This document shows positions 26,818 to 60,500 of a DNA stretch of 64,000 bases, piece after piece. The DNA is from Octopus vulgaris (taxonomy: Eukaryota): NCBI GenBank assembly GCA_951406725.2, contig OX597831.1:51274001-51338000 (forward strand), written 5' to 3'. Positions within the stretch are counted from its first letter, which is position 1. Every line of letters starts with the position of its first letter. Made by a program: the position numbers and the translations under genes. The notes below the pieces were generated by a model, which was not told the origin of the DNA, searched no databases, and saw only the letters and a list, made by a program, of their open reading frames with translations.

Positions 26818-29800
26818 GAGATACACACACACACACACCACACACACACGCACACACACATATATATTTAGAAAAAGATTATTATGACCAGTTCATTCGG
26901 TAACTCAGAGTTTCATGTCCATAAAATACTTAACTTTACATGTCTTGTCAGATCCTACATATATATATATATATATAAGAATAAATGTTTTATATATAAA
27001 GAACGTGAAATACAGGAAGGGACAAACACGGAACACAGACAAATCATTCGAAGCCTTCAATCTTCAGTCAGACACCGAATCATCATAGCAAATTTCGGCT
27101 GTTCAATTCTGATATTTGCTCCAACTCGGCCAGCCCCAAGAAAAAAAACTAAGCTGTAAGCATTAGATTTCTTTTAGAAGACACGAATGTAAACGCACGA
27201 GACGGATGTAAATACGAGAGACGAAAACGAAATTGAAAACGGTAACGGTTAAACAAAATATAATATAACGGTGGTTGTCATACGACTTTAGACCAAATGA
27301 GACAAAACAACAAACATAGCAGCAGGCGTAGAAATAATTACCTTTTCGATATACATATACATATAAGTGTGTCTATGTGTATGTACAGAGAAAGATGTAT
27401 ACACATACACATACATGGGCCAACCAAAGCCTTGTGAGTGGATTTGGTAGATGGAAACTGAAAGAAGCCTGTCGTATATATGTATATATATATGTATATT
27501 TATATGTGTGTATGTGTTTGTCCCCCCCCCCCCCATCATCGCTTGACAATTGATGGTGGTGTGTTTACGTCCCTGTAACTTAGCGGTTTGGCAAAACAGA
27601 ATGATAGAATAAATACTAGGCTTCCAAAGAATAAGTCCAGGGGTCGATTTGCTCGACTAAAGGCAGTGCTCCAGCATGGCCACAGTCAAATGACTGAAAC
27701 AAGTAAAAGAGTAAAAGAGAGAGTATACAGAGAGAAAGAGAGGGAGAAGGAGAGAGAGATGTGTGTATGTATGTATGTATATAAATATCCTCTCTTTCCC
27801 TTTTTCTCATGCATATGCACACACACACATGCACACACACACATACACGTGTATGTGCACACTTATACAAAAGGAAATCTCATTTAAAATGTTCCCTATA
27901 TATTGATGATTTACAGAAGTTCACGTGCAAATCCTGATTTAGGTAAGAACTTTGACTACAATATGGAAATACTGGAAACTGGACCATTGGATGCTTCAAA
28001 GGAATTTTATGGGTAAGCAACTCTTTGGAATATTCTCTGGTAAATCCTGATCCTGCAGATTTATAATCAGAGACATTCAAGCTGTCAAACAGTGTGTGTG
28101 TGTGTGTGTTTGTGTGTGTATGTGTGTGTGTTTGTGTGTGTGCATGCATATATGTTTATATGTATGTATGTGAATTATCCAATATGTTTTTTTATTAATT
28201 AACAATTACAACAGTTGTTGCTTAGCTTCATGCTAAACCTTTATCAAACTGGCAAATGTTTATCAAAGCCATCCAGCAATGACCATTCCATTATGACCTG
28301 GCGTTGCTGGGTCATAGTGCTAGTGCATGCATATACAGCTGCGTGCATGCGCACATACACACAAGTACTGTCCAAATCTCTGACCAATCACATAAAGCTA
28401 GCTGGCATTCAATTGGCGTATCGAGTTTCAGGCATTTTGATTGGGTTTTGGATAGAAAATTCACAAAAAAGTCACTTCTATTGATTTTTTAATGGCTTTG
28501 TGGAGTGACTGGGGAAATGTAAAGATGTTCACGACCACCCTTGGACAGTTTTGAATAACCATAGAAAGTGCGAGCCCTCTAACTGAAAAATTGTGGATTT
28601 GTATAAAGGATACACACACACAGACAGACATTTTGCCGTTTATATATATAGAGAGACTAGCAGTATCGCCCGGCATTGCTCGGGTTTGTAAGGGAAATAA
28701 TTATATAAGCATTATAGAGATGTAAAGTATAATAGCCATCTCAATATGGCTAACCACAAAGGGGGAGGGGTGTTACTGTAGCTTTTTACGTTCTGAGATT
28801 TAATAATAAATTTTAGAGAGTTACTTCCCTTATATATGTCAAAAATGGATTGAAAATGGGAAAAATTGATGGTAAATTTTTTTTAAAATCGTAGACTCAT
28901 CGTAGACGCGCGCTAATACCCAGACGGTCTCGATATGAATCACGACTATAAGATACCCAGTTTTGGTTAAACTGCACCGCAAAATGTGGGAGTAGTTAGG
29001 AATCTAAATCGTAGGAGACAGACACACAACCTCACTTTTATATATAAAGATTTCCTCTATTTACATAATATTGAGGTCTCTTTCTTTCTTTTGTTATCTT
29101 ACTGTTTTTACCAATATACATATATATATATATATATATAAATATATATATAGTTACAGAGATGTACTTGCATAGCAAGTGACTTGATCTGAGATCGTGT
29201 GCTGGAACGAAAACAGTTGCAGCGTTGAAGGTGTTTATAAACCATTTAAGAAACACACAAAAACCGTTAGATTCACTTCAACATTTAAATTTAATTTGTC
29301 AAAATATTTTCGTCGCTTTGAGACCGTGACCTGTTAGCACGATATTTTTGTCAGTGAACAGGTCGCGGTCTCAAAGCGAGGAAAATATTTTGGCAAATTA
29401 AATTTAAATGTTGAAGTGAATCTAACGGTTTTTGTGTGTTTCTTAAATGGCTTACAAACACCTTCCACGCTGCAATATATATATACACACATATATATAT
29501 ATGTATGTATGTATGTGTGTATATGTGTATGCATGTATGTGTGTGTGTGTGCGTGTCTGTGCTTGTGATTGTCCTCCACCACTGCTTGACAACGAATGTT
29601 GGTTTGTTTACATCCCTGTCACCTAGTGGTTTGACAAAGGAAACGGATAGAATAAGTACAATGCTTACAAAAATAAAACTGGAGTTGATTCATTAAACTA
29701 CAATTCTTCAAGGCATTGCCCCAGCATGGCCACAGACCAATGGCTGGAAAAAGCAGAAGAATAAAAGAATACATTCTCTGCTTTGGTCTTATGTTCAAGG

Positions 29801-32287
29801 CATGAGAAAGCTTGAGTTTACATGAGAAGGCCTAACAGACCTGGTAGAAACAGCAGCCAAATCTCCCTCAAATCACACCTTACTGTCTTATGTATGTATA
29901 TATATATGAGCCAATGAGGGGGACCTCTACATGGTAGCTAGACCTGGTAGAAATAGCAGCTAAATTTCCCCCAAATCACACCTTACTGTCTTATCTATGT
30001 ATATATGAGCCTATGAGGGAGACCCCTACATGGCAGCTAGACATGGTAGAAATAGCAGCCAAATCTCCCTCAAATCACACCTTACTGTCTTATGTATGTA
30101 TATATATATATACACAAGCCACTACGGTTATTTAATGTAAAGTCTTCCTCAAATCACTCTCGCTATTTACTCTCTTCCAAGAACATTTTCACTCACTCTT
30201 ATCTCTTAGCTTGCCATACATTTTACTCATGTATCTATCAGCGTGATAGACAGAAACAAATATTACATCGCCATCGCCATCTATTGTCTACCTGTCAACA
30301 CACACACAGTGAATTACTTTCATTTTATTCGTTGCACACTGTGTGTGTGCGTGTGGTGTAAACCACATTAAGAAAAGCATTTGACATACACACCAGAATG
30401 TGAGTTTTCTGTAAATTTTGCTTAATTGGAGTTTAAATTTTAAAAACTGGACCTGGCATGACCCGATGCATTCTACTCTTAAAAATGCTAGGTAAATTGT
30501 AATTGAAGAAATCCTATATTGTAGATTTCTATAACTGACAAAGGGAGGCAGATAAAATCTGCCTTTTATAATAAGAGATATGGCTTCATCTTCTATTTTT
30601 GCGCTAACAAGGGAACTTGTATGTAATTGTTCAACCTGATAGAAATTGCAGCAAACTGCTTTCAAATCATCCCCTATTGACTTCAAAGCTTTTGATCATA
30701 GGTTTGTTAGATCAGGGTTACCCTTGGGATGAACATGAACAACAATTGGTTTTATGCCTGAATAAGAAAGCAATTTAAAGGCTAGCTATTTGCCCATTTT
30801 CTTCAACACCTTAGCCTTACAAGCAAGTAAAGGAATCTATATACAGCTGATTGACTGGCTAGATATAGTAGCCAGATCTTTCTTAATTCAAACCCTATCA
30901 GTTTAAAAGAGGAAAAGTGCATTGAACAATGTAATCCCAGATACAGTATATTTGATAAAAACAAAATAAGATGAGATAGTCATGGTTGGAATGCTTTTAA
31001 TCATAGGCCTGTAGATCAAGTTTGTCCTTAGGATAAAAAAACAACAATAATTGGCTTTGTGCCTAAATAATAAAATAATAAAAGATTAGTTATCTATCTA
31101 TAGCCCTTAGATCAAGATCCATATAGAAATGTATTGGCAGCATGATTTAACCCTCTACCATTCAGATTACTCTGTTAAATGCAATGCTTATTCATTCACA
31201 TTGTTTTGAATTATTTATGCATGAGCAAAACGCTGCTTTCCCCCCCCCCCCCCCATCCAATGGACAGTGCTGAATCATATCTGCTGAATAAAAAGCAATC
31301 AGTGTTTTCTTTTCATTAAAAAAATAATTAAGCACGCCTTTATTTCAATAGAATTTTTGGTTGTGTTAAACAAAGTTGAGGCAAAAGAAAAGACTTCTTG
31401 AGAAACCAAATAGTCTTTCCTTCCTTCATGCAAAGTTTGAAGAAAATATCTCTTTTGCATCTTATGTTTTTGGTCTCCTAAATATACTGCATTTTGTGGC
31501 ATTATTTCAAGCCAGTCGGCTTTTTTTGCACAAACTGCACGTGCATTTTTCTCGTGTATGTGTAGTATTGATCGCAACAGCTGATGTACTTGCATGTACA
31601 AATGCACGTTCCCACGGCTTTATTGATCGTATTCTCACCTGGAATCGATTTTTGTAATTTTTTCAAGACTTATGCACGCCCTGATACCGTTGGTATCTAC
31701 ATATCAAATTTGAGCGCAATCAGATGGAGGATGCCCGAGATCCTAGAAGACACACACACAGACAGACAGAACGGATTTTATATAATAGATTATCAAATAA
31801 CTTTGAGATTTTGATAATGTGATCGTGTATTTTTAGAATGCCATTGTAGGGTAGGCATGAGAAACTGGATCTGGCCTTTTTGCATGTAAAGTGAAAGTTG
31901 TGGTGCACCTGAGCACTGTATACAATAATTTCATTATTTTTTATTTTAAAATAGGTAGGATATTTAGGCTGAATATGGCCAGTTTAAATGCTAAAGCGTT
32001 AAAATTGTTGACTTGTGGTTCACTGCCTTGAACCATGGATTGATTCTAAAGACATCAAGAAATATTTCTTTCATTTAATGATTAATACATTTGTAAAGTA
32101 CTCATTTAATTGACTGTGAATTGTTTCTTTTTTACAATTAGTGCTAGAAATAATGTCAAACCAAAAGTATTTGAAGAACCAGTGTGTCAACAAGCCCTTC
32201 AGAATCATCTTCCAATTAAAAAGAACAAGCCTGCACAGCAAAAATATCTTGAGGTTGGTTGTCAGTTGTTTTACTTTTTCTAGTCAG

Positions 32288-32334
<47 letters not shown>

Positions 32335-33915
32335 AAAAAATGAAGTTCGAAAATGCTGCTATATTATACAATTTTTAATTTTTATATATACATTATAACA
32401 TGTTTCAGTTCCTGAAATGAACCTTATCAAAAAAAGTTATATATAAAAAAAGACAGCTCATGCCGTCAAACACAAGAAATTCATTTATAATACACAACGG
32501 AGTCAGACATCTTAGAGTTCATGTATAGTTGATATATAGTTTGAAGTAAGTTCATTCATGCTATATGTTCAAAGTGTTCGATGCAGTGGCCCACGGTGGC
32601 GATACGTATTCAATACAAAAAACAGATCAAAGTGGTGGAAAGCAGTCAATACAGAAGATTGATGTTTCCGAAAGAGCGAGGAATTCATTTTTACCTTAAG
32701 CAATTGTGATGACCCATGGTGGGTGTTCGCAGCGAACACCCACCATGGGTCATCACAATTGCTTAAGGTAAAAATGAATTCCTCGCTCTTTCGGAAACAT
32801 CAATCTTCTGTATTGACTGCTTTCCACCACTTTGATCTGTTTTTTGTATTGAATACGTATCGCCACCGTGGGCCACTGCATCGAACACTTTGAACATATA
32901 GCATGAATGAACTTACTTCAAACTATATATCAACTATACATGAACTCTAAGATGTCTGACTCCGTTGTGTATTATAAATGAATTTCTTGTGTTTGACGGC
33001 ATGAGCTGTCTTTTTTATATATAACTTTTTTTGATAAGGTTCATTTCAGGAACTGAAACATGTTATAATGTATATATAAAAATTAAAAATTGTATAATAT
33101 AGCAGCATTTTCGAACTTCATTTTTTACAAATATATACCTACTCGTATACGAGCTAATCCTATTATAAATATATATATATATAATAATAATAATAATGAT
33201 AATAATAATATTAGGGAGTATATCCAAACTTACAGGGAAAAATTAGATTTAGGAAATTTAGGATTATTTTTTTTTTAGTCATTGCAGAGCCTACACTTTG
33301 TGTCTACCTCATTGTGCGGGACATTAGCTTGATAGTTCTGGGTGAAGAGACTCTAATCTTGTGCTGCTAGGATAAATCCTTCTGTTTCGGCTTTCAAACC
33401 AACACTCTGCAGCCACTGATTGGTTCTTCTTATATCTACATCAGCTTCCCCAATTCATTTGGGCTATTGTGCATGCAATGGTTTTTCTTGCCAGTCTCAA
33501 TATTTCCTTCAAGCTTTCCTGTTTGGCTTTTCTTTTTCACATTTTTTTCTTGCCTTACTGGATGGTGTGTCCTCTCCTTATCATCATCATAATCAGGGAG
33601 GTTAAGCTTTCATCTGTTTTTACATTCCCCCTTTGAGATTGAGTGCAGTTTCTTACTCAGTTTGTGTTGCCTACCAGCTGTGTCATCCATCTGGTGTTGC
33701 TTCAGGTTCTGAGCTGGCAGAATCGTTAGCAAACTGGGAAAAATGCTTAGTGGTATTTGATCTGTCTTTACGTTCTGAGTTCAAGTTCTGCTGAGGTTGA
33801 CTTTGCCTTTCTTTCACTCGGGAGCAATAAAATTAGTACCAGTTGAGTACTGGGGTCAATGTAATCGACTATCCACCTCCCCCAAATTTCAGGCCTTGTG
33901 CCTATAATAGAAAGG

Positions 33916-33953
<38 letters not shown>

Positions 33954-33965
33954 AACCACCACCAC

Positions 33966-34002
<37 letters not shown>

Positions 34003-35773
34003 TAGTCTTATTTTTATAACATGTTTTCACTGCACTACTGAGTGCAGCTCTGTGTGTCTTGGGTATGTGTTGTGGTTTACTGTGATGCTCTTATGGTTAC
34101 TGTATTGAAAGTGTTTTGCGTAAGATGTGTGCAGTGCCCAGTAGTGCAATTTTCTGTATGTTATATATATTTGTTAGACTTGGTGTTTTTGTTATGTATT
34201 TGTCTGAATATTTTTTTATCATACCTAATGTGCCTTCTATGATAGGAATTGTTTCTGTTTTTAGACTCCACATTTGAGTTACCTCTATTTTCAGGTCTTT
34301 GTATTTTGAAAGTTTCTCTATTTCTTTTAAAGAAATGTCATCTGTTGATATTGATACATCAATTAGAAAGCATTTTCTCTTCATCATCTCTGACAACTAT
34401 ATCTGGCCTATTGGCCTTAATTTCTCTATGTGTGTATTGGCATATCCCATAGTATTGTGGCTTTCTCCTTTTCTGTGACCTTTTCTGGCATGTGCCTATA
34501 CCACCTTTTTTCTGTTGTTATTCCATAGTGTTGACATAGCTTCCAGTGTATGTAGGTCCCAATACTGTTGTGTCTGTGAATATATTCCTTCTTAGCCAGG
34601 ACTGGACAGCCAGAGACAATATGATTTATTGTTTCTTGTCCATCTCCACATATTCTGCAGTTACTTGTTATGTTTCTTTTCATTATATGTTTTTGATAAT
34701 TTCTGGTGGGGAGGCTTTGGTCTTGTGCTGCAATTAAAAATCCTTCAGTCTCTGCTTTGAGTCCTGAGCCTCTCAGCCATTGCTGGGATTTTGCTTTGTC
34801 TATTTCTTTTGCATTTAGTTTAGCCCAGTATTTGCCATGAAGGGGCTTTTCTTGCCATCGTTTTATCATGATCCATTGCTGTTCTAGTTTCGTTGTCATT
34901 GTCATTCATAAGTGAGATATCTTACAATAAACATCACATAGTTATTATTATGTTTATGATGTAGATAACCTACAGTAGCTGTCACCCAAACTCCATCAGT
35001 TATATTTAGGTATGTTCTCCTAAGAATAAATTTTAAAATGAAAACACTGACTTCTTTTTTTGTAATTCCAGGATCCAATGGTTCCTCTGGTTGTCTCTCC
35101 AGGTTATATTTTATCTAAGAATAAATCAAAGTATCATGCAATGATAAAAACTGGAGAATTTTTTAATCCAATACAAGCAGAAGATACTGAAGAGTAAATA
35201 TTTTTGTTACATTTTCTATTTATAACAACTATCTTTTAATTTTTACTTGCTTTAGTCACTGGATTGTAAGTCATACCAAGGTTTTGTCTTGAAGGGTTTT
35301 AGTTGAACAGATCAACCCTTGTACTTTTTTCAAAGCCTGGTACTTATTCTGCTGGTAAATTTTGCATATATGGAGAGGTAAACAAACCAACACCAGTTGT
35401 TAAGTGGTGGCAGGGACCAAACATAAATACAAGACATTCACACACACACACACACATACACACACAACACACACACACGCATAGACTCACATAGTGGGGG
35501 GGGGTATGGCTTAGTGGTTAGGGTGTTGGACTCATGATCATAAGATTCTGGTTTTGATTCCCAGACTGGGTGGCATGTTGTGTTTTTGGGCAAAACACTT
35601 CATCTCACATTGCTCCAGTCCACTCAGCCGGCAAAAATGAGTAATCCTGTGTTGGACCAGCGCCCCGTTCAGGTGGGAAATCCATACACTATGGAAATCA
35701 GGAAACTGACCCTCATGAGTCAATATGACTTGAGAAGGTAACTTTACCTTACCTTACACACACACGTGCGCAT

Positions 35774-35818
<45 letters not shown>

Positions 35819-38085: not shown

Positions 38086-38123
<38 letters not shown>

Positions 38124-38368: not shown

Positions 38369-38440
<72 letters not shown>

Positions 38441-38915: not shown

Positions 38916-38966
<51 letters not shown>

Positions 38967-40942
38967 AAGTAAGTTGGGGGTTGTAGATCCAACCCTCTAA
39001 GGGATAATACTTATCCAATATACTGTTGGTATACTACCCAAATTATTAATGCACAAGTGTTTTTAATTGCAATGCAACAAACTCACTTATTGTATTAAAT
39101 GGGTGAAGGTGAAGAAATATTTCACCATTAATTTATATTACAAATAAGAAAATGGAGAAATATATTAGTTGGTTTATCAGCTTTACGATATTAGAATGTT
39201 GCCTTATTTAATTATCAAAACTACAACCATAATAACATACATATATACAGTATAAAATTCAATACATTTAAGATAAGAATGCAAGTAGTTATTAAAAACA
39301 TTAATATAAATTGTTAGAATCATTAAAATCACTTACAGCTGTTTCAGCCTATGGAAAAAAGTAATTTTTTGTGCCTATACTTATCATGTTTTTAATAACT
39401 ACTTGTATTCTTGTCTTAAATGTATTGAATTTTATGCTGTATATATGTATGTTATTATGGTTGTAGTTTTGATGATTAAATAAGGCAACATTCTAATATC
39501 CTAAAGCTGATTAACCAACTAATGTGTTTCTCCATTTTCTTATTTGTAATATATATATATATATATATATTATTATTATTATATATATATATCAATGGTC
39601 TGCTAGTGAGCGGCCCCCTTAATTATCAGCTAACATCTTGTTTTAAGTTTTCCTTTACTAAACCTCATGATATTGCTTCTAATAAATCTTGATTTTTATG
39701 ACTATACCAACTATGATGTCTGTCTGCTCCCTCAGCCCTACCCCTAACAGATATTGCCCTCTGTTCTCTCAGCCTTAGATATACAGGGGATTTGATAAAC
39801 TAGTCTAGAAATTAAAACTGACCCCATAAAAACAAAAAATCAGTGACAGGCAGAGTCTGTAACAATGTATATCTTCTTGAAAATTCAGTAACTTCTAAAC
39901 TGGAGTGAGACAGCATGTTCTTTGTTTATCTCCTTAACTTCTTGGAAATTTTAGGTATAATTATACTAATGTGTCCATCTGTTCTAATTTAATTAAATTC
40001 TATGTCTTTGTACAACTGAAGATTGCTCTACATTTTAAATTGATGTAATGATTGCATTGTTCGATTAAATGGAGTTGCATGAAATGATCGTACTGCATTA
40101 CCTCTGGATATCCTTGTTGCTTATTTTGATTATATATATATATATATATATATGATATATATATATATATATATATATTACATCGATCCCAGTGCGTAAC
40201 TGGTACTTAATTTATCGACCCTGAAAGGATGAAAGACAAAGTCAACCTCAGTGGTATTTGAACTCAGAACGTAATGGCAGACGAAATACGGCTAAGCATT
40301 TCTGCCAGCTCGCCACCTTCTTTCAGTTTCTGCCTACCAAATCCACTCACAAGGCTTCGGTTTGCCTGAGGGTATAGTAGTAGGCACTTGCCTAAGGTGT
40401 TCTGTCATGAGTACTGAACCTGGAACCATGCCTGCACCTATATATATATAGTTTTATGTATTTTAGAAAAATGGCATTATTAAATATGAGACAATATCTA
40501 TTGTGCTAGAAATAACATAATATAGCAATAACCCTGTTCAATTGTCCAGGCATTCTTAGTTGAACTGCCTGAGGTGGTCCAAACAAGTGGCTGTATGATC
40601 ACCTATTGCAGACACCCTGAACCATGACAGTCAACAGATGGTTGCGGTAAGTGTGTGTGTGGGGGGGGGTTAAAGTGAATACAGTGGGGAGATGGGTGAA
40701 GGCTGTGATGAGATGTGGGGGAGAGATAGCAAGAGGGAGATATGAGATACACATTAAGAAGTTAAACTGACCTCAGCTGATCACAGTTGTTAGTCAATTT
40801 ATATTTACAAAACGGGACTTTTTTTCGTAACACCACTATTTTTGCTTTTAATTTCTACTGTAGGCAGAGCAATTTCTCAATGACACAGTCAAAGAACTGC
40901 AGACACAACATCAGGATGAAATCAGGTCAGTCTTTATTCTAG

Positions 40943-40978
<36 letters not shown>

Positions 40979-41277: not shown

Positions 41278-41343
<66 letters not shown>

Positions 41344-41838: not shown

Positions 41839-41873
<35 letters not shown>

Positions 41874-44800: not shown

Positions 44801-47800
44801 AAGTAAAAGAAGTTGTGTGTGTGTGTGCATGTGCATGCACACATGAGTGTGTGTGCCTTCAATTTCAGGATTTCTATAAAAATATACCTTCCTTGGGGAA
44901 ATATTACCTGACAGGTAAGTGTTGGCATTAGGGGAAATATTACTTATGACAGGTAAGGATTGGCAACACAAGTTCAATTAATGCATGGAAAAGTGGTTAT
45001 TAAAATGATGATGATGGTCATGGTTGTTGTGGTCATTGTCGTTGTCATGGTGGCAGTGGTGACATCGACAATGACAAACATGTTTGCCAATGTAGAAAAA
45101 TCATCAGTGTGTACAAAGTACTTTGACATATTTAGCATTAACTTAACATTATGTGTGAAGACACACATATATATACATGTACAAACATGTGTGTATACGT
45201 GCACCTTTGTCTGTGTGTGGGTCTGTGCATGTTTGAAAATTTTCAAAAAACTTTTCAGAAAATTTTGATGAAAATTTTCAAAAAACTTTTCAGAAAATTT
45301 TGAAGAAAATTTTCAAAAAACTTTTCAGAAAATGTTGATGAAAATTTCCAAAAAATTTTTTATAAAATTTTAATGAAAATTTTCAAAAAATTTTTTATAA
45401 AATTTTAATGAAAATTTTCAAAAAACTTTTCAGAAAATTTTGATGAAAATTTTCAAAAAACTTTTCAGAAAATTTTAATGAAACTTTTCAAAAAAAATTT
45501 CAGAAAATTTTGATGAAAATTTTCAAAAAACTTTCGAAAAAATTTTTTTTTTGTTACGTTTCAGCTCGGAGCTGCGGCCATGCTGATGCACCGCCATTTT
45601 GTGCGACACTTATTACTTGGAGCCTCATCTAATATGTGGCAAATGGAGTTTGATCAGAAAATTTTAATGAAAATTTTCCAAAAATTTTAAAGAAAATTTT
45701 GCTGAAAATTTTCAAAAAAGTGTTGAGAAAATTTTAATGAAAATTTTCAAAAACTTTTCAGAAAATTTTGATGAAAATTTTCAGAAAGTTTTGATGAAAA
45801 TATTCAAAAAATTTTCAGCAATTTTGTTGAAAGTTTTCAAAAAACTTTTCTGAAAAATTTTTTGAAAATTTTCATCAACATTTCTGATCAAGTGCCACAT
45901 ATTAGATGAGGCTCCTAGTAATAAGTGTCGCACAAAATGGCGGTGCATCAGCATGGCCGCAGCTCCGAGCTGAAACTTAACAAAAAAAAAAATTTTTTCG
46001 AAAATTTTTCGAAAATTTTCATCAAAATTTTCTGAAATTTTTTTTGAAAAGTTTCATTAACATTTTCTGAAAAGGTTTTTGAAAATTTTCATCGAAATTT
46101 TATAAAAAATTTTTTGAAAATTTTCATCAACATTTTCTGAAAAGTTTTTTGAAAATTTTCATCAAAATTTTCTGAAAAGTTTTCTGAAAATTTTCATCAA
46201 AATTTTCTGAAAAGTTTTTGGATAATTTTCATGAAAATTTTCTCAACACTTTTTTGAAAATTTTCAGCAAAATTTTCTTTAAAATTTTTGGAAAATTTTC
46301 ATTAAAATTTTCTGATCAAACTCCATTCTTCATCAAGTGCCACATATTAGATGAGGCTCCTAGTAATAAGTGTCGCACAAAATGGCGGTGCATCAGCATG
46401 GTCGCAGCTCCGAGCTGAAACGTAACAAAACAAAAAATTTTTTTCGAAAATTTTCATCAAAATTTTCTGAAATTTTTTTTGAAATGTGTCATTAAAATTT
46501 TCAGAAAATTTTCAAAAAACTTTTCAGAAAATGTTGATGAAAATTTTCAAAAAACTTTTCAGAAAATTTTAATGAAACTTTTCAAAAAAAATTTCAGAAA
46601 ATTTTGATGAAAATTTTCAAAAATCTTTTCAGAAAGTTTTTATGAAAATTTCACAAAAAGCTTTTCAGAAAATTTTGATGAAAACTTTCAAAGAATTTGG
46701 ATGCACCGCCATTTTGTGCGACACTTATTACTCGGAGCCTCATCTAATATGTGGCACTTGATGAAGAATGGAGTTTGATCAGAAAAAATTGATGAAAATT
46801 TTCAAAAAACTTTTCAGAAAATTTTGATGAATATTTCAAAACACTTTTCAGAAAATTTTGATGAAAATTTTCAAAAAACTTTTCAGAAAATTTTGATTAA
46901 AATTTTCAAAAATCTTTTCAGAAAGTTTTTATGAAAATTTCACAAAAAGCTTTTCAGAAAATTTGATGAAAACTTTCAAAAAACCTTTTTATTTTTTCTT
47001 AAGTTTCAGCACAGGGCTGTGGCCATGCTGATGCACTGCCGTTTTGCGTAACACTGTTATTACACAGCCACTCCTGCACCTATTAACTGTTGATATTTTC
47101 ACTGTAAAATTATATTAGATATTATAAGTACCAATTTGAAATGGAAAACAGCAACATGCAATGATGACAGTGAGATGATTAGAGCAGTTGCTCTTTTCCG
47201 TCTCAAATTTATGCTTGTAGTGTCCAATTCTAAAGAGAGGAAAAGTTAGAAAAATTTGTTCTTTCCTCATAACATCATTGTTTTCTTCAAATTTTTAGGA
47301 GAACGCCTTGAAAATGAGAAGGAGTCAGAAATCGATAATTTGATGAAAGAACATCGTGAGCAAGAGGAGCAACTGAAAAAGGAACATGGTGAAAAACTTG
47401 AGGTGTATACTTTTTTTTGATTTTCTTTAAAGTATTTCATTGCCTTTTTTGATTTTATAATGCTATACAATATTATAAGTGGAGGCACGTGGCTTAGTGG
47501 TTAGGGTGTTGGACTCATGATCATAAGATTGTTGTTTCGATTCCTGGACTGGGCGATGCGTGGTGTTCTTGAGCAAAACACTTCATTTCTCGTTGCTCCA
47601 GTCCACTCAGCTGGCATAAATGAGTAACGCTGCAATGGACTGGCGTCCCGTCGAGTTGGGGAACACATATGCCATAGAAACCGGGAAACCAGGCCCATGA
47701 GCCTGGCTAGGCTATAAAAGGGCGCATTTATTTATTTATATAAAATTTTAATATTATACAATTGAGAAAAGATTGATTGTTACACAAAACTGTTTCTCTT

Positions 47801-49383: not shown

Positions 49384-49415
<32 letters not shown>

Positions 49416-50550: not shown

Positions 50551-50617
<67 letters not shown>

Positions 50618-52061: not shown

Positions 52062-52121
<60 letters not shown>

Positions 52122-52516
52122 ATGATGGGCTGGCTTCTTTTAGTTTCTGTTTACCAAATCCACTCACAAGGCTTTGGTCAGCCTGGGTCAGTAGCAGAAG
52201 ATATTTGCCCAAGATGCCATGCAGTGGAACTGAACCTGGAACCATGTGTTTGGAATGCAAACTTCTTATCACACAGCCACACCTTCACTCATTAGACCTG
52301 AAAATTATGTAATTATTCTATATTCTGAGTTAAAACCCTGCTGATTGGATTTGTTTTTCATTCCTCTGGATTAGATAAAATAAGTACTAATAATTATTCA
52401 ATTGACTATATTCCATCACCTGCAAAAATTACCCTTATGTTTGATTAAAAGAAATCAGTATATCAATACTGTTATACTTGGGGATGGTCATGCTATTTAT
52501 TTGATCTTCATTTTAG

Positions 52517-52559
<43 letters not shown>

Positions 52560-54624
52560 CATTATTATTGTTGTTGTTATTATTTTTAGATTGTTCTGCC
52601 TATTCCATTCCATTTTGTCTTTATGTCCCAAACACAGAAAAACAAAATGGAATAGGCAAGACAAGAGGGGACATGCAGAACAGAAAGTCATTGGAAAGGT
52701 CGCAGTATGTGTGATGAAAGAACTCTGACAAATAAACTAAAAATAATAATAATAATGCTAAAGTGAAGATCAAATAGATTGCATGTGTGTTTAATCAGCA
52801 AAAGATGAGCAATCCAAAGTATAACAATATTTGTTTCAAAACACGATTTCACATTCAAGAATCTTGTAAAACAAATACATAAACATAATATATCAATATA
52901 TGTAAATCAAATAATTTAAACCGCTATCCATTTCATTTACTTTTTTCAGCGGGGACAGTTGAAAGCTTTTGAAGATAATTTTGACAAAAAAGTTGATGAA
53001 GTTGATGACCATTATAAGCTGAAAATCAATAACCTCTTGATGATGAATTCAGAGCTTCGGAAAACATTTCGGAAGAAATGTGAAGAATTAGCAACTGAGA
53101 AATACTGTGCAAGCCAACGCCAGGAAGTTAATATTAAAAAGATCAAGGACACAATAGAGGTAAAAGTTGTATTTTGTTATTTTTGTAAATAGCTTGAACA
53201 TCATTATCATCATCATCATCATCATTGCTTAGCGTCTGCTTTCCATGCTGGCATGCGTTGGACGGTTCGACTGGGGTCTAGGAAGCCAGGAGGCTGCACC
53301 AGGCTCCAATCTGATCTGGCAGTGTTTCTACAGCTGGTTGCTTTCCTAGCACCAACCACTCCAAGAATGTAGTGGGTGCTTTTTACATGCCACTGCCACA
53401 GGGACCAGAGGGAGCTGGCATGATATTAAAATATAATGAATGGACAGAGAACCACTGTTTAGCCAATTATATTCCTGCTTTGTATTGCAAAATTCTTGTG
53501 TATCAAGTCAGTAATATGAGACCCTGTAGATGAGACAACACAGGACTGACATGAATGGAGAAATAATATGATGCAGATTTGTTGTTTAAAAGATAAACAT
53601 TAAAATGAAAAAAAGCAGTGGTAGTAATGGAGCTTATCAGTTGTCACTCTAGAATGATGACAGTAAGAGCAGCAAGCTTTGAAATGAAAATGATTGATTT
53701 TTAATTGATTGGTGGAATGTTGAGTAATGATTGGAAGAGGATGATCCAAAATACAGGTGGTTGAAATGGGGTTCCTTGAAAGGATCTCTGGAATTATGTA
53801 TAGCTGAAATCAGGGAGTCCCTCCAGGAGAAGCCATTACTTGGCATTGAGAGGTCACAGCTTTGAGAATATGAACTTGAGATTAGAATGCTGCAGGAAAG
53901 GATTGCAAGACGAATTCTTCATTGACCCTAGTTTTTGATAGGTACTTAATTTTATTCATCCCAAAGGGATGAAAGGCAAAGTTGACCTTGGCAGGACTTG
54001 GATCCAGAGCATAAAGAACCAGAAGAAATGCTTCTATAAATCTTAAACATCAAAATTCAGCCCTGTGCCTTATCAAAAGAAAGAAATATATTCTTTTTCC
54101 TTGCAGCAATAGGATGTAGTTACATTTTATAGCTAGGTGAACTGGACTGGAAAGAGCTAAGTGTCTTGACTACGGATACAGTGAAACCCATCTGATAAGA
54201 TATAAAGTTATGATGCTTTATCCAGTATACAAATATGCCAGATTACATTATAATTCATAATGACATTTATTTTGCCCACTTTGCTGTACATCAAGAAGTA
54301 CAATTCACTGTTATATAACAGCTGAAATTATCATCATTACTGATACTAAATATTTTATTGAAAACAGCAGTAAACAATGATAATTTTGTTTATATTGAAA
54401 AATATTACAATATAAGTACTAGTTTGCTTGCTTCAATGTTTTCTTTCCAGAGTTGCCGACAGAAGAAAACAGAGATTCCCAACATTCCTGGTTTCCAAAT
54501 TCCATCTCAATCAGCCGACAAAGAAGTTGCTGTTGAAACTACAACAGACTCTGCAAAAGACTACCATCAATTACTAGACAAAGATTTCTTCAAATGTACT
54601 GACATAGTTAAATCGCTTAATTAA
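24057..54624 (+). CDS. FLACC1: Flagellum-associated coiled-coil domain protein 1-like (ALS2CR12), 14 coding exons, 499 aa
   Basis: Phase-consistent GT-AG exons: 24057-24142, 27917-28012, 32142-32253, 35072-35193, 36403-36429, 38595-38688, 40864-40925, 41950-42047, 43507-43659, 47299-47402, 49612-49683, 51940-52029, 52950-53159, 54451-54624 (total 1500 nt). Motifs VVSPGYILSKN and FNSYQATLLEEMEKEWS resemble vertebrate FLACC1 as recalled (VSPGYQLVRN, FRTYQDSIYDEMEEKWS). The first three exons and the start codon are less certain. Confidence 0.75.
25330..26070. repeat. Degenerate (CAC/ACC/CAT)n trinucleotide low-complexity region
   Basis: Visible triplet periodicity; source of the poly-V/G/P ORFs. 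Confidence 0.85.
27917..28012 (+). CDS. FLACC1: FLACC1-like exon 2 (SSRANPDLGKNFDYNMEILETGPLDASKEFY)
   Basis: TTTACAG acceptor, GTAAGC donor, open frame, phase 2-2. Confidence 0.6.
28657..29050 (-). mobile_element. Non-autonomous Helitron
   Basis: Reverse-complement copy of the 4657-5170 family with TC/CTAG ends; abuts the 5' end of another Helitron-like piece (about 28480-28656). Confidence 0.85.
29217..29475. mobile_element. Fold-back (inverted pLTR-like) Penelope-like remnant
   Basis: Arms about 29217-29335 and 29357-29475, (TA)n flanks, contains a hammerhead-like motif. Confidence 0.7.
29347..29397 (+). ncRNA. Minimal type-I hammerhead-like motif, G3-C8 core variant
   Basis: TTTGTCA-GTGAACA-G-GTCGC(loop)GCGA[G/C]-GAAA-ATAT-TT-TG[G/A]CAAA; brackets give the two arm alleles. 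Confidence 0.5.
29837..30110 (+). repeat. ~100-bp tandem repeat, about 2.7 copies
   Basis: AGACCTGGTAGAAATAGCAGCCAAATCTCCCTCAAATCACACCTTACTGTCTTATG at about 29837, 29940 and 30039. Confidence 0.9.
32142..32253 (+). CDS. FLACC1: FLACC1-like exon 3 (ARNNVKPKVFEEPVCQQALQNHLPIKKNKPAQQKYLE)
   Basis: Polypyrimidine tract plus AG at 32141, donor GTTGGT, phase 2-0. Confidence 0.6.
32324..33137. repeat. ~810-bp near-perfect palindrome (1-nt spacer at 32731), Penelope-like fold-back
   Basis: Centre GGGTGTTCGC-A-GCGAACACCC. The arms match out to the (TA)n flank, with one A7/T6 homopolymer indel seen. Confidence 0.95.
33330..33560 (-). pseudogene. R4/Dong LINE fragment (older copy)
   Basis: WLQSVGLKAETEGFILAAQD on the minus strand. 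Confidence 0.65.
33999..34895 (-). mobile_element. 5'-truncated R4/Dong-clade LINE (CCHC finger plus REL endonuclease), frameshifted
   Basis: ETEGFLIAAQDQ, CRIC..ETINHIVSGC, RHN, NRPD, IDVSI, K..KYKDL, IQKIALLGTAHILRK. The 3' end runs into (TAA)n at 33968-33998, the known Dong target. Confidence 0.9.
35072..35193 (+). CDS. FLACC1: FLACC1-like exon 4 (DPMVPLVVSPGYILSKNKSKYHAMIKTGEFFNPIQAEDTE)
   Basis: TTCCAG acceptor, GTAAAT donor; SPGY motif. Confidence 0.8.
35506..35755 (+). mobile_element. tRNA-derived SINE
   Basis: TGGCTTAGTGGTTAGGGTGTTGGACTCATGATC head and ACCTT tail; related copies at 43010-43258(-), 47481-47727(+) and 57039-57260(+). Confidence 0.75.
36403..36429 (+). CDS. FLACC1: FLACC1-like exon 5, 27-nt microexon (NKEPENPE)
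   Basis: TTTATCAG acceptor, strong AG|GTAAGA donor, symmetric phase 2-2. Confidence 0.65.
36462..36868 (+). mobile_element. Helentron-associated (HINE/DINE-like) element
   Basis: Subterminal inverted repeats TCCGCCAAG / CTTGGCAGA, GTCC microsatellite, 3' TTCTAGTT; an opposite-orientation relative lies at about 59140-59500. Confidence 0.55.
36885..37277 (-). mobile_element. Non-autonomous Helitron
   Basis: Same family as 4657-5170, with an internal ~100-bp tandem duplication. Confidence 0.85.
38595..38688 (+). CDS. FLACC1: FLACC1-like exon 6 (DILLEKLHQQIADLKLFLEEERYKHMQSKVK)
   Basis: TTTCAG acceptor, GTCAGC donor, heptad pattern. Confidence 0.85.
39134..39553. mobile_element. Fold-back Penelope-like remnant with half hammerhead in the spacer
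   Basis: Arms about 39134-39301 and 39386-39553, ending in (TA)n. The spacer reads GGCTGAAACAGCTGTAAG on the minus strand. Confidence 0.7.
40864..40925 (+). CDS. FLACC1: FLACC1-like exon 7 (AEQFLNDTVKELQTQHQDEI)
   Basis: TGTAG acceptor, GTCAGT donor. Confidence 0.8.
41950..42047 (+). CDS. FLACC1: FLACC1-like exon 8 (KIEEEHCRVIKEIEENHRNQFENCKQEMESQI)
   Basis: TCTCAAG acceptor, GTAAGA donor. Confidence 0.85.
43507..43659 (+). CDS. FLACC1: FLACC1-like exon 9 (SLKERNSSLQSAFNSYQATLLEEMEKEWSY...)
   Basis: TGCAG acceptor, GTTAGT donor. Confidence 0.85.
45232..47063. repeat. Composite satellite: 35-bp A-tract repeat interspersed with five LINE-3'-tail units, central segment inverted
   Basis: Unit GAAAATTTTCAAAAAACTTTTCAGAAAATTTTGAT. 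GC-richer ~100-bp units at about 45553-45656, 45884-45981, 46312-46426, 46700-46782 and 46998-47063. Confidence 0.9.
47299..47402 (+). CDS. FLACC1: FLACC1-like exon 10 (ERLENEKESEIDNLMKEHREQEEQLKKEHGEKLE)
   Basis: TTTTTAG acceptor, GTGTAT donor. Confidence 0.85.
47481..47727 (+). mobile_element. tRNA-derived SINE with (TTTA)n tail
   Basis: A/B boxes TGGCTTAGTGG and GTTTCGATTCC. Confidence 0.8.
49612..49683 (+). CDS. FLACC1: FLACC1-like exon 11 (SMAQYYYNVMEELKEMNSLKHKLK)
   Basis: TTACAG acceptor, GTAAGT donor. Confidence 0.8.
50985..51385. repeat. ~380-bp dispersed repeat, direct copy at about 53535-53910
   Basis: Shared CTAGAATGATGACAGTAAGAGCAGCAAGCTTT...GCCATTACTTGGCATTGAGAGGTCACAG. Confidence 0.85.
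51390..51544 (+). mobile_element. RTE-like LINE 3' end with A-tail
   Basis: Translates GRRPKG*PRTRGLDNI (degenerate RTE C-terminal GRP..RW motif), then GGCGGTGCATTAGCATGGCTGCAGCTCTGAGCTGAA and A10. Confidence 0.6.
51940..52029 (+). CDS. FLACC1: FLACC1-like exon 12 (NTQMELEFLKDSHADLQKHFNTMNKEFTNT)
   Basis: TTTTAG acceptor (alternative in-frame CAG at 51948), GTAAGT donor. Confidence 0.8.
52950..53159 (+). CDS. FLACC1: FLACC1-like exon 13 (RGQLKAFEDNFDKKVDEVDDHYKLKINNLLMMNSELRK...)
   Basis: TTTTTTCAG acceptor, GTAAAA donor, ORF 52959..53192. Confidence 0.9.
54451..54624 (+). CDS. FLACC1: FLACC1-like terminal coding exon 14
   Basis: TTCTTTCCAG acceptor, in frame to TAA. Confidence 0.75.
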   Translation, partial: SCRQKKTEIPNIPGFQIPSQSADKEVAVETTTDSAKDYHQLLDKDFFKCTDIVKSLN

Positions 54625-56853
54625 TTTATTGCTTGGTTAATCTTCTGACTATGTTAATTTCAACAATACTACTCACTTAACACTTTTTTTTTTTCAGTTT
54701 TTCCATGCAATCAGGAGTGGATTAAGCCTTTAGATTTCAGATTATTCTGTCAGTTTTGAATTAATCATGTATTATCTCCTGGTTTCAAGATTTTGATGAT
54801 GTTATCTTTTTGTTTTTAGAATAACATTGTAGGGTAGGTGTGAAATGCTAGGTCTGGCCAGTTTGAACATAAGTGAGGCAAAATATTTTGGCTAGTTTAA
54901 ATGCTAAAGGGTTTTCAAAAATTTACAAAAGAGAAGTTGGTTCCCATATCCATTGTAAATTTGCAAGAGGTTTTCTCTTGAAGGATGATTGTAGGAGGCA
55001 ACAGAGAGTTGAAATCATATGTAAAGGATTTCGTTTACTTGATGCAAAAATTGCAAATTGACAGACATGTTGGCAAGACAGCTATTATGATAAAATCTCA
55101 CTTGTAAATGATGGATTGTTTTCTTTCAAATTTACATTTTAAGGTTAACATCAGGAATATTTCAAAATATAATGGAATATTTACTCTTTGGCCTGGATTT
55201 AGCTTAAAAATAGAATATGTGACGATCAATAATGTAATGGTCTTCCAACTTGAAGGACGATTGTAGGAGGCAACAGATAGTAAAGGATTTCATTTACTTG
55301 ATTCTCTGATGTGCATTTGTGAGTAATAATAAAAATTTAAACTGCATGAGTGCCAGATAACTCCAAAAGTTCAATATGTGCAAATTTTAGTGTTAAGTTT
55401 TTGAAATTCTGGAACAGAAAGATAAGGAGATCAGATAAGTTTATTTTGGGTTATATTTTGATTAAAGAATTCATCATCATTATCATTTTAATTTCCTTTT
55501 TCTTATGCTTGCATGAGTTAGATGGAGTTGAATTTGGGTGAATTTTTTTATGGTTGGATGCTCTTCCTGTTACCAACATTCACCTGTTTCGAAGCAAGGT
55601 AATATTTCTTCATGGTCAGACATGTTCTCATAGGATACCGGAAATGAATGATACTGCTTTTATGACAGTGACAATCAATTTACGATTACCACATGATATC
55701 AAGACAAGGAGATACAAATATACACACACTCACATACACATGCATATACAAGCTTCTTTCAGTTTTACTCACAAGGCTTTGATCGGCCCAAGGCTATAGT
55801 AGAAGACGCTTACCTGAGGGAGGTGCCATGCAGTGAGACTGAACCTATAGTCTTGTAGTTGGGAAGTGGACTTCTTACCATACAACCATGCCTAGGCCTG
55901 TCTGTGATAGTTGATAATTAGTGAGGATTTTCAATAACTAGAAATCATCAATATTTGTTCTAATAACACTTTTAATTTTCCATCTTCTCAATATCACACC
56001 AAGATAATTATCTACATTCTCCCCACCTCTGAAAATTCCTGATAACATATGAGTCCTATAATCTTTTCAACTTATCGAAAGCCATTTTATATTTCACTTG
56101 GTCACTTTTACTCTAATTTTCCTTCTGCATTTGTAAATATAAGTTTCTTACACAACCAAATGCTTCAAGGTTTGATCCCCACTGTGGCACGTGTACATAG
56201 AGATGTACACATCCACTTCTAAGCTATTGGTCCATGTGAAATTACAGAAGATATGTGCATCTGCATGTGTGTCTGACTGTGTTTTCTGTATTCATGCTTA
56301 CACTAGTCCAAAAACTGTTGTTGTTTATGCTTTACAGTTTATATCCTGTAACTTAGCAGGTTGACAAATAGCAACCACTAACATAGATACTTGACTGAAA
56401 TAAGAACTGAGTCAATATAATCAACTAAAACCATTTAAAGGGGGCACAGTCAAATAACTGAAACTAGAAAAAGAAAAAAATATTTTTTTAACCTTTTATA
56501 CTTTGAAATAACTTCTGGAAATAAGAATAATTTAAATAGAATAATTAAAATAAAATAAAAAATCTTTTTATTATATCAAATAATTCTTTTATTTGATTTA
56601 TTGGAATAAAAATGAAAACATATTTTAAATTTCTTTTTGGTTTGTTTCATTGCATTAACTTTACAATATTTTTCTCCACAGATGTATACATCCTCCAGAC
56701 ATTTCTCCAAATATTGATATTTGCATAAAGTTTTTTTGTAAACATTATTTGCAAATAGATGAAATTGTTGTCTTCACTCTGGGTTGTCATTCTTACTCGG
56801 GTCCTTTTTTACTTAAAAAAACGACCTTCATTATGTCAATTAACTCCCTTCTC

Positions 56854-56907
56854 TTAGTCTTTGAAGAAATTTTTGTTGGAATAGAACAGGACAAAAGCAG
56901 CAGATGT
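56854..56907 (-). CDS. USP8: USP8 terminal exon (TSAAFVLFYSNKNFFKD-stop)
   Basis: CTTTCAG acceptor, A-F/Y-V-L-F-Y motif, downstream AATAAA signals at about 56565-56605. Confidence 0.9.
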   Translation of the reverse strand, partial: TSAAFVLFYSNKNFFKD

Positions 56908-57422
56908 CTGAAAGAAGGAAAAAAATATTGTTGAAGTAACTGTTAAGGCATTTAGCAAAATTACAAAATAGGACCTCTTTTCTTTTTCTATTTCCTATTA
57001 TACACACTTAAATTTGTCTCTTATACATATAAATATGTGGAGGTACATGGCTTAGTGGTTAGGGTGTTGGACTCGTGATCATAATATTGTAGTTTCGATT
57101 CCTGGAACAGGCAATGTGTTGTGACTCTTGAGCACTTCATTTCATGTAGCTCCAGTTCACTCAGTCAGTAAAAAAAAAAATGAGTACTCCTGTGACGAAC
57201 CAGCGTCCCATCCAGAGAGAAATATATATACCTGGGAAACCAGCCCTATGTTCCTTATGGAGAAATGTGAACTGATCAACACATAAATATATATTTTTCG
57301 GAGTGGTAAGAAGCAGGTTCAATCCCACTGCATGGCACCTTGGGCAAGTGTCTTCTACTATAGTCTGCAGCCAACCAAAGCCTTGTGAGTGGATTTGGAA
57401 GACAGAAGCTGAAAGAAGCCTG

Positions 57423-57505
<83 letters not shown>

Positions 57506-57528
57506 ATATATATATATATATATATATG

Positions 57529-57566
<38 letters not shown>

Positions 57567-60500
57567 GTTTTGACTGATATTTCTAAATATGTTAGGGTTT
57601 TAAAACCCTCCTAGTTATAATTGTGACTTGTTCATAATTATAAGCAGTCTTCTTCTTTTATATATATATATATATCATCATCATCATCATCATCATCAAG
57701 CTGACGCTAAATGATGATGATGATGATATATATAAAAGAAGAAGACTGCTTATAATTATGAACAAGTCACAATGATAACTAAGAGGGTTTTAAAACCCTA
57801 ACATATTTAGAAATATCAGTCAAAACCACTATAAAGCCATTTAAATCGCTCATATTGTTTCTCTTCACAATAAAAGCTGTCTGCAGGCGACATGACAAAT
57901 AGAATCCACAACTTAAAAATAACTGGTTAATTCCCAATTGCAATTTCGATGTTAAGGACCTATTAAGGGACATTTGAATTCATAACTTGAATGTGTAGAT
58001 AGAAGTTGACACATTTCTCTTGCCAGTCGGGATACATGTTAGCCCCAAGGTAAGGCCTTGTTTTGATTTCTATCTACAGGAATATTCCCCTGAAGAGACA
58101 AATGGGCCCCTTAATAGGTCCCTAACGTTGAAATTGCAATAGGGAATTAACCTGTTATTTTTAAGTTGTGGATTCTGTTTGTCATGTCGCCCACAGACAG
58201 CTTTTATCGTGAAGAGAAACAATATGAGTGATTTAAAAGGCTTTATAGCAGTTTTGACTGCTATCTCTAAACATGTAAGTGTTTTGAAACCCTCTTAGTT
58301 ATCATTGTGACTTGTTCATAAATATAAACATTCTTCTATGTATTTTATGATAACATGTTTGGATAAGACAGATAAGCTAGATAGACAGATATGTGTGTGT
58401 GTGTGTGTGTCTTTGCATCTGTCCCCCACCACTGCTTGATAACCATGTGTGTTGGTATCCACATAACCTAACGGTTTGGCAAGAGAGGTCAATATAAGTA
58501 CCCAGCTTAAAAGAAAAAAATATGGGGGTCAATTCATTCAACTAAAAGTTCTTTAAGGCAGTGCCCTAGTATGGCTGCAGTCTAATGACTGAAACAAGTA
58601 AAAGATAATTCTGTCTTCACGAAAAGGGGCACAACATAGTTGATATATGTTATCAGCTATGGTTGAGTTGGCTAGCTTAAACTAATTCAGGACACAAAAA
58701 TGTGAAGCAAAACAAACAAACAAAAAAAAAAGCCTAAGCTTCTGTGTGGTTAAGAAGTTAGCTTTGCAACTATGTGGTATCAGGTTCATTCCCACATCAG
58801 AGCACACTGGGCAAATGTCTTGTGCAATAGCACCAGGCCAACCAATGCCTTGTGAGTGAATTTGATAAATGGAAACTGCACAAAAGCATGCTGTGTATGT
58901 GTGTGCATGCACATGCACTTGTTTTTATCTCTCACTGCTTGACAACCAGAATTGACTTGTTTGTAACCTGTGACTTAGCAGTCTGGCAAAAAGTGATTGA
59001 CAGAATAAGTACCAGATTTAAAATAACTATGGGAATTGAACTGACAGACTCAAACCTTCAATGCAGTGCTGCAGTCCAGTGACTGAAACAAGTAAAAGAA
59101 TAAAAGACTATCATGATCTTTTCTTAATGATGACAATGTTAACAAGAGCAGTCCGAGAGTGCAAACCTTCACCAAGGCAACACCAACATTCTCTCAATGA
59201 TTAACCAGAGATGATTTTTAAAATGAGAATATCTGAAATAAACTTGACTGCTCTCACAAGCGAGAATGCTAAAAATCACTCTCAAAAATTAAGTGCAAAA
59301 ACAGGAAAAATAATCCAGAATACTTGTCCAGTACCAGATTGATCCCAAAATCTAATCAGTTTGTGCCAGTCACAAGGCCAAACATCCCTGAAAGTTTCAT
59401 CTGAATCCATCCAACAGTTCTTCAGATATTTTGTCCATGGACAAACAAACAAACATGACTGAAAACAATACCTCTGCCTTCGCTAAGGCAGAGGTAATAA
59501 TTTTAGATGTATTTTTTCAAGTCAATATGAAATGGATTAGAAGGCAGGAAGCTAGCAGAATCGTTAGAATGCCAGGCAAGAGGCTCAACATTTTGTCGGT
59601 CTTTACGTCCTGAGTTCAAATTCCACTGGGCTCAACTTTGCCTTTCATCTCTTTCAGGGTTGATAAAATAAGTATCAGTTAAGCACTGAGGTCAATATGA
59701 TCAACTTGCCTCTTCCTTGAAATTACTGGTCTTGTACGAAAATTTGGAACCAATATAAAATGGATTAGTAAATTTCAACATTTTCATGTAATTTTAAAAA
59801 CAAATATTTTAAAGTATGTAGGTACATTCTTTGCTCAAGTGCCAAATTAAGAAAGCAGAAATATTTTATCAATTACTCACACAAACTTTATTAATCAAGA
59901 CTGCTTTATTTCAATGCTTGAACCTGAGAAATGTAGTGTCTTATATTTTATGGTTTAATCTAAAAGAATAACATATTTTTAGTCTTTCATTTTCCTTTTT
60001 TCATGACTCACCTTTACTTCTGGTCCAGTCATTTCAGAGATTTCCTGATCATCAAATTTGTACCATTTTCTTAATGACGGGTTCTTGCAGAATGAAATAT
60101 CTAAAAACAAAAATGGGAACAGTGAAAATAATTTTAATCATTTAGCATTTAATCTGGCCATACCTGGCCCAGATATTCTACATGTTTTATGTTCAAACAA
60201 ACCAGATCCAGCCTTTCACACCTACCCTACAGTGTCAATCTAAAAATATACTCTTACATCATCAAAATCTTAAAGCTCAGAAGATAATGCAAGTTCAATT
60301 CAAAACAATGTGAATAAATAATAAGCATTTCATTTGACAGAACAGTGTGAATGCTAAAGGCTTAAAAAGCAGTCCAAGATATTTACTAAACTTTTCACAC
60401 CTGAAAAGTTCCTGGCTTTAAGGGTATCGTGAAAGGCTTGGTTGGAGGCCCAACCTTCTGAGTTCTTTCACAGGGCTTAGAAAAACTGAAAGACTGCTGC

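Follow-up and report, generated by a model that had tools for sequence, protein, structure and literature searches.

Hammerhead ribozymes of Penelope-like elements (PLEs) with a palindromic stem III, an extra nucleotide and a U3-A8 pair have already been published (PMC4209133; PMC3088659; all papers are cited here from excerpts). The motifs described lie in the pseudo-long terminal repeats (pLTRs) of the elements, are of type I, carry the additional nucleotide after position 9 and before 10.1 and frequently have U17; they cut slowly, as dimers (PMC4209133). Several of the sequence traits recur in the families of four fold-back elements, here called A, B, C and D, that lie in a 64,000-nucleotide stretch of Octopus vulgaris DNA (assembly GCA_951406725.2, contig OX597831.1, positions 51,274,001 to 51,338,000 of the forward strand), which as a whole is referred to as the window and to which the positions below refer. 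From comparison of sequences we consider it probable that the fold-backs are truncated, inverted insertions of PLEs, that the parents of A and B carry G3-C8 and U3-A8, respectively, as fixed pairs, that the pair is kept by selection on the folded ribozyme, and that the copies in the window are inert.

Published PLE hammerheads also occur as opposite-strand pairs 100–700 bp apart, like the fold-backs of the window, and U3-A8, reported in PLEs in 2014 (PMC4209133), is found in Cercyon of Schistosoma (~1300 hits), as in B. A natural, active U3-A8 covariation, as in B and in the lineage T described below, was likewise reported by Perreault et al. (2011; PMC3088659). G3-C8, which the octopus clade has in addition to C-G and U-A in sister lineages, appears neither in the excerpted text on PLE hammerheads nor in the passages from Perreault et al. 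Indeed, it is the textbook engineered rescue: PAc, a Poseidon element of the green anole, is naturally C3-G8, and the exchange C3G/G8C partially rescues its hammerhead (Frangieh et al., 2024, PMC11167929), whereas family A, with thousands of copies, bears this rescue pair as its natural, fixed state. A natural G3-C8 hammerhead was not found in the literature searched, which is incomplete (Lunse et al., 2017, Przybilski and Hammann, 2007, and the supplement of PMC4209133 lie outside it), and among the matches listed for octopus Penelope ribozymes none concerns these cores by its title or the start of its abstract.

Hammerhead mutants leave insertion in vitro unimpaired (PMC11167929), and some PLE clades have no such motif, among them the Naiads, which spread nonetheless (Craig et al., 2021, PMC8557442). 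In the case of PAc, uncut RNA is the main template, cleavage requires protein, and the endonuclease favours AT-rich DNA (PMC11167929). Where sister lineages differ by compensated exchanges at a tertiary pair, this is evidence of the type that reveals selection on the active fold.

Four fold-back insertions and their parent elements

A preliminary description of the window had placed four inverted repeats of unrelated sequence in it. They are present as placed, and BLASTN finds no similarity between them or to the rest of the window. The hammerhead cores read in three of them are confirmed (GTGAACA at 29354 in A, TTGATAA at 33031 in B and CTGAAGA at 58090 in D), and so is GAAA followed by a palindrome in all four: ATAT in A (G12 at 29381), CATG in B (33055), TTGCAA in D (58130) and, on the minus strand, CAGCTG in C (39334–39345). 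Contact with (TA)n tracts is seen on both sides of A and B, on the right side of C and on the left side of D. Rfam gives no hammerhead in the window at E values up to 10, nor any in five loci. The features are:

28656–30579, plus strand: composite repeat, young, 1.9 kb, inside which the window copy of A is carried along
29154–29475: element A, two truncated copies from the pLTR end of an autonomous PLE that form a fold-back
29217–29475: inverted repeat A, arms 90.8% identical
29347–29397, plus strand: hammerhead motif A, with stem I of 7 bp, core G3-C8 at 29354–29360, extra G, stem II, GAAA-ATAT-UU and N17 = U at 29390
32142–32253, plus strand: internal host exon of 112 nt with AG/GT ends and one open frame; B lies in the following intron
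32324–33172: element B, made up of the 3′ end of an autonomous PLE (young, 4.7 kb) and of an inverted copy, in (TA)n
32324–33137: inverted repeat B, arms 99.6% identical
33025–33071, plus strand: hammerhead motif B, with core U3-A8 at 33031–33037, GAAA-CATG-UU and N17 = U at 33064
33138–33172: tail of element B, the 35 nt after the right arm, equal to the sequence between pLTR end and the first open reading frame (ORF1)
39131–39556, minus strand: element C, truncated and inverted, with only the 3′ half kept and GAAA-CAGCTG-UA at 39334–39345
39131–39556: inverted repeat C, arms 85.5% identical
57560–58365: element D, pieces in forward and inverted orientation from a non-coding tandem unit of 548 nt
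57560–57833 and 57723–58356: inverted repeats D, arms 91.0% and 82.5% identical
58084–58147, plus strand: hammerhead motif D, with core C3-G8 at 58090–58096, stem I of 6 bp, GAAA-TTGCAA-UA and N17 = A at 58141

All four elements had been assigned to introns, which is supported for B only. B begins 70 nt past the splice donor of the 112-nt exon, and because this exon is bounded by AG and GT, B lies in an intron of a plus-strand gene; contigs from three runs of three studies, which we presume to be RNA, cover 32141–32254 as an internal piece. A sits upstream of the acceptor of the same exon.

Pattern counts and repeat families were searched over the whole 2.8-Gb genome. Each fold-back belongs to a dispersed family and is thus beyond chance; each of the four is an insertion, truncated and inverted, from a high-copy repeat family of its own. 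Exact patterns gave 1378 matches for A (core to stem III) and 612 for B (free at positions 3, 7 and 8) versus 0 for the reversed controls. That the fold-backs are assembly artefacts, or terminal inverted repeats of DNA transposons (miniature inverted-repeat transposable elements) with the motifs there by chance, is hardly credible: the 99.6% palindrome of B and the amplification of the window copy of A inside a DNA-transposon-like composite would agree with it, but the two flanks differ, the inversion point varies from copy to copy, most B copies have no inverted arm (two orientations are present at 4 of 30 loci), tails and open reading frames (ORFs) fit PLE anatomy, and the motif counts are far above the controls.

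An autonomous PLE is the source of element B, which joins a 5′-truncated copy of it to an inverted one. The family is young (the 30 best loci are 94–100% identical over the element end), and in its full-length members same-strand cores occur in pairs 4.7 kb apart, one in each pLTR (L166–L168), with pLTRs that are 99.3–99.6% identical (250 nt at 99.6% in L166, 508 nt at 99.4% in L168). ORF2 matches Pfam RVT_1 (E = 6.9e-7) and GIY-YIG (E = 4.5e-6) with a CX4CxxC linker, and ORF1 (479 aa) overlaps it in another frame (1133–4829 in L166; also L167–L170 and L157). A T TTT TTA run, presumably a −1 slippery site, is conserved at the start of the overlap in 6/6 copies checked and is a candidate frameshift site. 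Motif B has a stem II of 5 bp with G10.1-U11.1 and a stem I with two U-U mismatches; its mirror copy lies on the minus strand, with the core at 32430. U3-A8 is found in 100/100 of the matches listed, which rules out that B is a single decayed copy of a canonical family. In the young subfamily U11.1 is present in 100/100 of the matches listed; the older copy L160 keeps C11.1 as well as U3-A8.

Element A consists of a minus-strand copy, which has no core and runs into a tail, and a plus-strand copy, which bears the hammerhead. Its tail is the start of an ORF and was traced in this way to full-length elements. The best preserved of these, L291, has 1118-nt pLTRs that are 98.4% identical, 89–92% identical to element A and both endowed with G3-C8, and a frameshifted ORF for reverse transcriptase (RT) and endonuclease (EN); L290, L292 and L293 are alike and less complete. 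The protein of the A parent, with DKS, YVDD, CX3CxxC and YIGET motifs, is 54% identical over RT and EN to the intact 1312-aa ORF of a sister lineage, S, and is related to the B protein (BLASTP, E = 3.7e-10). With related ORFs it falls among RVT_1/HTH_animal/GIY-YIG clusters of a protein atlas, at 0.94–0.96; in the PDB a relative was not found. The 7-bp stem I of motif A is in exact register with G3. In the window copy C11.1 is changed to G, and the G10.1-C11.1 closing pair of stem II is lost.

It should be noted that all 30 of the best-matching A loci have the same composite flanks, some truncated, so that fixation among these alone would be meaningless. However, in a sample of 30 loci collected without the core, 26 have a core, namely 24 G3-C8, one G3-A8 and one A3-C8, and 22 of the 24 G3-C8 copies are independent insertions, so that fixation via the composite alone is rejected. 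The parent family is much larger than the composite (a pattern downstream of the cut site gave 5042 matches, controls 0), C8 is present in 96/100 of the exact matches listed, and genome-wide just 5 matches are changed at both position 3 and position 8, none of them to C3-G8. The 3-8 variants are therefore fixed in A and B rather than decay specific to single copies, and searches with CUGANGA would indeed miss both families, as had been anticipated.

The composite repeat has fixed ends, a CTAG start and a terminal hairpin followed by TTTTATAATAAG, which we take to be Helitron/Helentron-like, and at times occurs as head-to-tail or inverted pairs. It captured and amplified the PLE fragment A together with other repeat pieces. 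Tandem A pairs 2.7 kb apart, considered as possible PLEs, turned out to be inverted composite repeats.

The 5′ end of short A copies is sharp and falls ~22 nt upstream of the core; it coincides with a putative branch point, pyrimidine tract and YAG of the parent (~890–921 in L291, ~888–919 in L293). In Penelope of Drosophila virilis an intron end similarly adjoins helix I, according to the excerpt available. Short copies usually read YGAG at this end versus YYAG in the parent, and a splice donor that matches their 5′ letters was not found, so that the intron stays putative. A second, canonical hammerhead at the sharp end was seen in 0/4 extended copies and in none of the 100 upstream flanks listed, and a stem with CTGA near it proved to be ORF sequence.

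A and B thus have the anatomy of endonuclease-containing (EN+) PLEs: an ORF with RT and C-terminal GIY-YIG, direct pLTRs (partial tandem) that contain the motif, 5′-truncated and inverted copies, an optional tail and microsatellite targets. With the Neptune and Nematis elements (PMC8557442) they share the C-terminal GIY-YIG, two cysteines between GIY and YIG, the partial tandems, the inverted 5′-truncated copies, a tail (30–40 bp there), (TA)n targets and, in the case of B, an optional frameshifted ORF1. The CX2-5CxxC linker between RT and EN, a feature of Neptune and Nematis, is present in the A, S and B ORFs. In PAc reverse transcription starts inside the start of the ORF and yields a tail (PMC11167929), like that of A. 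B (DKG motif, overlapping ORF1) and the clade of A, S and T (DKS, single ORF in S) are ~21–28% identical in the RT region; the 120 homologues listed include no named PLE references, and the clade of A and B is not fixed by a tree with such references.

The preliminary description had taken the families for non-autonomous, PLE- or retrozyme-like. This part does not stand for A and B, which are fragments of autonomous RT + GIY-YIG PLEs and not retrozymes, since both run into RT/EN ORFs and have no non-coding tandem monomer; the assignment to PLE-type dimer hammerheads is borne out. The term retrozyme-like fits D only. Its unit of 548 nt is a non-coding tandem with a canonical hammerhead, and for this reason D appears retrozyme-like: two cores are 549 nt apart in L095, where the longest ATG ORF has 34 aa, direct repeats at 450–551 nt occur in further loci, and 29/30 motifs parsed at 30 loci, which were found with a core-containing query, are C3-G8. 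Metazoan non-LTR retrozymes (Cervera and de la Pena, 2020, PMC7229834; Li et al., 2026, 10.64898/2026.07.22.740005) are, in the excerpts seen, also non-coding tandems of low GC content (33% in D) with a type I hammerhead and PLE-like insertion, but their described units measure ~220–400 nt. A further candidate of this type, separate from A–D, is L181 (minus strand, 971 and 1333), a 362-nt tandem unit with a U3-A8 hammerhead reading GAAA-CGCG-UC.

Family C is canonical like D: 20 cores parsed at 30 loci comprise 19 C3-G8 and one A3-G8; stem II measures 9 bp and loop II ~90 nt. The window copy is broken inside loop II and has lost the core; a UUGACAA in this loop was not accepted as a core, because no stem II lies in register with it. 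In 62 loci, mostly with only 1.5 kb of flank, tblastn with three PLE proteins revealed no parent of C or D that bears an ORF; it gave just three short matches, all within other insertions.

It appears quite improbable, in view of these data, that each of the four is a non-autonomous ribozyme element, or a retrozyme, of independent origin and replicates via cleavage and circles. Most copies are short and non-coding, those of A have a sharp 5′ end and a loop II unlike that of L291, so that a short sub-lineage may propagate separately, D is a tandem unit with hardly any coding capacity, and for C no parent is at hand. However, A and B run on into RT + GIY-YIG ORFs that are flanked by direct pLTRs, the tail of A encodes an ORF N-terminus, and its 5′ end lies at the putative 3′ splice site of the parent rather than at the cut site; for B this explanation is refuted and for A largely so; it may still hold for C and D.

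Covariation of the 3-8 pair in sister lineages

The preliminary description had seen covariation in the comparison of the four window elements. Since these are unrelated to each other, their comparison alone is no evidence for it. The 3-8 covariation is nevertheless real, and its best evidence lies outside the window, in the sister lineages of A. A protein search with the start of the A ORF led to two of these, S, with its intact ORF, and T, known here from ORF starts and short copies. A, S and T agree in the position of the motif and in its extra G, 5-bp stem II and GAAA. S has C3-G8 in 10/11 cores parsed, and T has U3-A8 in 10/16, the others being one C3-A8 and five that are disrupted or due to chance. 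An older relic, L269, is A3-U8 and a single copy. In a tree of the ORF starts, which is unrooted and comprises 16 of 19 rows (L263, L269 and L279 were dropped because of short or weak alignments), the groups are supported at 98/100, 87/91 and 100/99. Co-evolution of U17 with G3 is not supported: S and T also carry U17. The three lineages amount to matched natural constructs, with a young, near-intact protein partner in the 1312-aa ORF.

Family S (L270–L273) is very young and has at least 12 near-intact ORFs of 1310–1312 aa, with an Asn-rich insert, and a hammerhead with C at position 9. In L289 N-terminal ORF fragments of the S group form a tandem array, ~400–900 nt apart. The window itself contains a fifth PLE relic with inverted arm (52570–52890), related to S and A, with an S-type stem III followed by the ORF start; its core has decayed to UUGGAAA (U3-A8, A6 changed).

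A total of 98 stretches of 10 kb at round coordinates (980 kb, two of them flanking the window) were scanned with positions 3 and 8 left free; motifs with a long loop or a weak stem I, such as those of families C and B, escape the scanner. It found 23 motifs, 12 C-G, 6 U-A, 1 A-U, 0 G-C and 4 mismatched, versus shuffle means of 0.15, 0.35, 0.25, 0.2 and, for the twelve non-Watson-Crick classes, 3.3. The C-G and U-A motifs, which collapse to 6 and 3 clusters, respectively, are thus far above the shuffles and the mismatched pairs are not. CUGANGA descriptors miss about one third of the motifs with a paired core (6/18 in this survey).

Predicted cleavage competence and the case for selection

Three stems, the core N3-UGA-N-N8-A, GAAA, a Watson-Crick 3-8 pair and an NUH triplet are present in families A (parent L291), B and D. 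The window copies of A, with G10.1-C11.1 broken, and of C, without a core, lack this set. The predicted energies of the stem III self-duplex are −0.2 (A), −4.6 (B) and −6.5 (D) kcal/mol. To open the inverted arms and form the motif would cost 61.5 (A), 80.6 (B) and 50.8 (D) kcal/mol versus 1.4–4.2 for the motif alone, and because of this cost the window copies are predicted to be inert, with the motif sequestered by the inverted arm, despite the orientation of A, B and D, which is that of the host exon. The copies in the window are ordinary PLE debris.

Published PLE biology suggests how such insertions might arise. The GIY-YIG endonuclease of the element would nick (TA)n DNA, reverse transcription would start inside the RNA at the tail just past the pLTR, and a truncated copy together with an inverted one could result if both nicked strands were copied or if the template was switched. 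The hammerheads would act as dimers via the palindromic stem III and cut slowly, probably helped by the protein of the element, most copied templates being uncut. In the parent elements the 3-8 pair may be kept since the folded core still matters there; in host pre-mRNA the inverted arm is predicted to pair with the motif and to block it.

Several observations weigh against selection on the ribozyme, or against parts of the PLE assignment. Motif A is predicted to be weak, given its stem III duplex, and in the fold of lowest energy G3 is paired with U17, which puts this fold 1.3 kcal/mol lower than the competent one; for a G3-C8 variant, activity was reported to be lower with C17 than with G17 (PMC3884650). 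In young B, U11.1, U17 and the two U-U mismatches of stem I look like decay. In the young S subfamily with the intact ORF, A9 is changed to C in 9/10 C3-G8 cores, and a change so nearly fixed in a spreading subfamily means that core decay does not stop the spread. A footprint of the cut site was seen neither among the A copies listed, where 2/100 have a break there, both with microhomology, nor in the upstream pLTRs of full-length elements, which reach far past the motif. G3-C8 is absent from the 980 kb surveyed, and the sister series comprises only two or three independent events. Finally, Pfam has no relevant match for three of the proteins, including the A-parent and S ORFs, and C is without a parent among the loci searched.

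The state of the B and S motifs and the missing footprint would fit another explanation, with an unchanged PLE origin and variant cores that are no more than dead relics: the hammerhead became dispensable, its core drifted in one master element and the resulting sequence was fixed as that element amplified, U3-A8 being two common transitions and G3-C8 one lucky double change. The insertion of hammerhead mutants in vitro (PMC11167929) and the spread of Naiads (PMC8557442) argue in the same direction. We nevertheless regard it as rather unlikely. A Watson-Crick 3-8 pair is present in all the multi-copy families observed (A–D, S, T and four clusters of the survey), mismatched motifs stay at the level of the shuffles, and G3-C8 requires two transversions. 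U4, G5, A6, GAAA and the pairing of stem II persist across lineages whose ORF N-termini are ~38–60% identical. We therefore prefer selection on the folded ribozyme as the probable reason why the pair was kept.

A bolder and tentative proposal goes further. One autonomous PLE clade may have rewritten the 3-8 pair in three ways (C-G, U-A and G-C), possibly four if the A-U relic L269 is included, with stem III left nearly absent and U17 retained for the most part, and selection might hold the ribozyme folded but throttled, so that it cuts only when its own protein binds. If this is true, the hammerhead of family A would be the first with a natural G3-C8 pair to come from an autonomous retroelement, and the clade would offer a ready series for asking what makes PLEs retain a ribozyme that is dispensable for insertion.

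Other features of the window

Two U1 snRNA genes (129 bits each) are found at 8403–8566 on the minus strand and at 15561–15724 on the plus strand. They sit in long inverted arms (6723–8808 versus 15319–17909) that are 91–99% complementary. A satellite at 45100–47000 consists of 11–12-nt units with a 35-nt period and alternating orientations.

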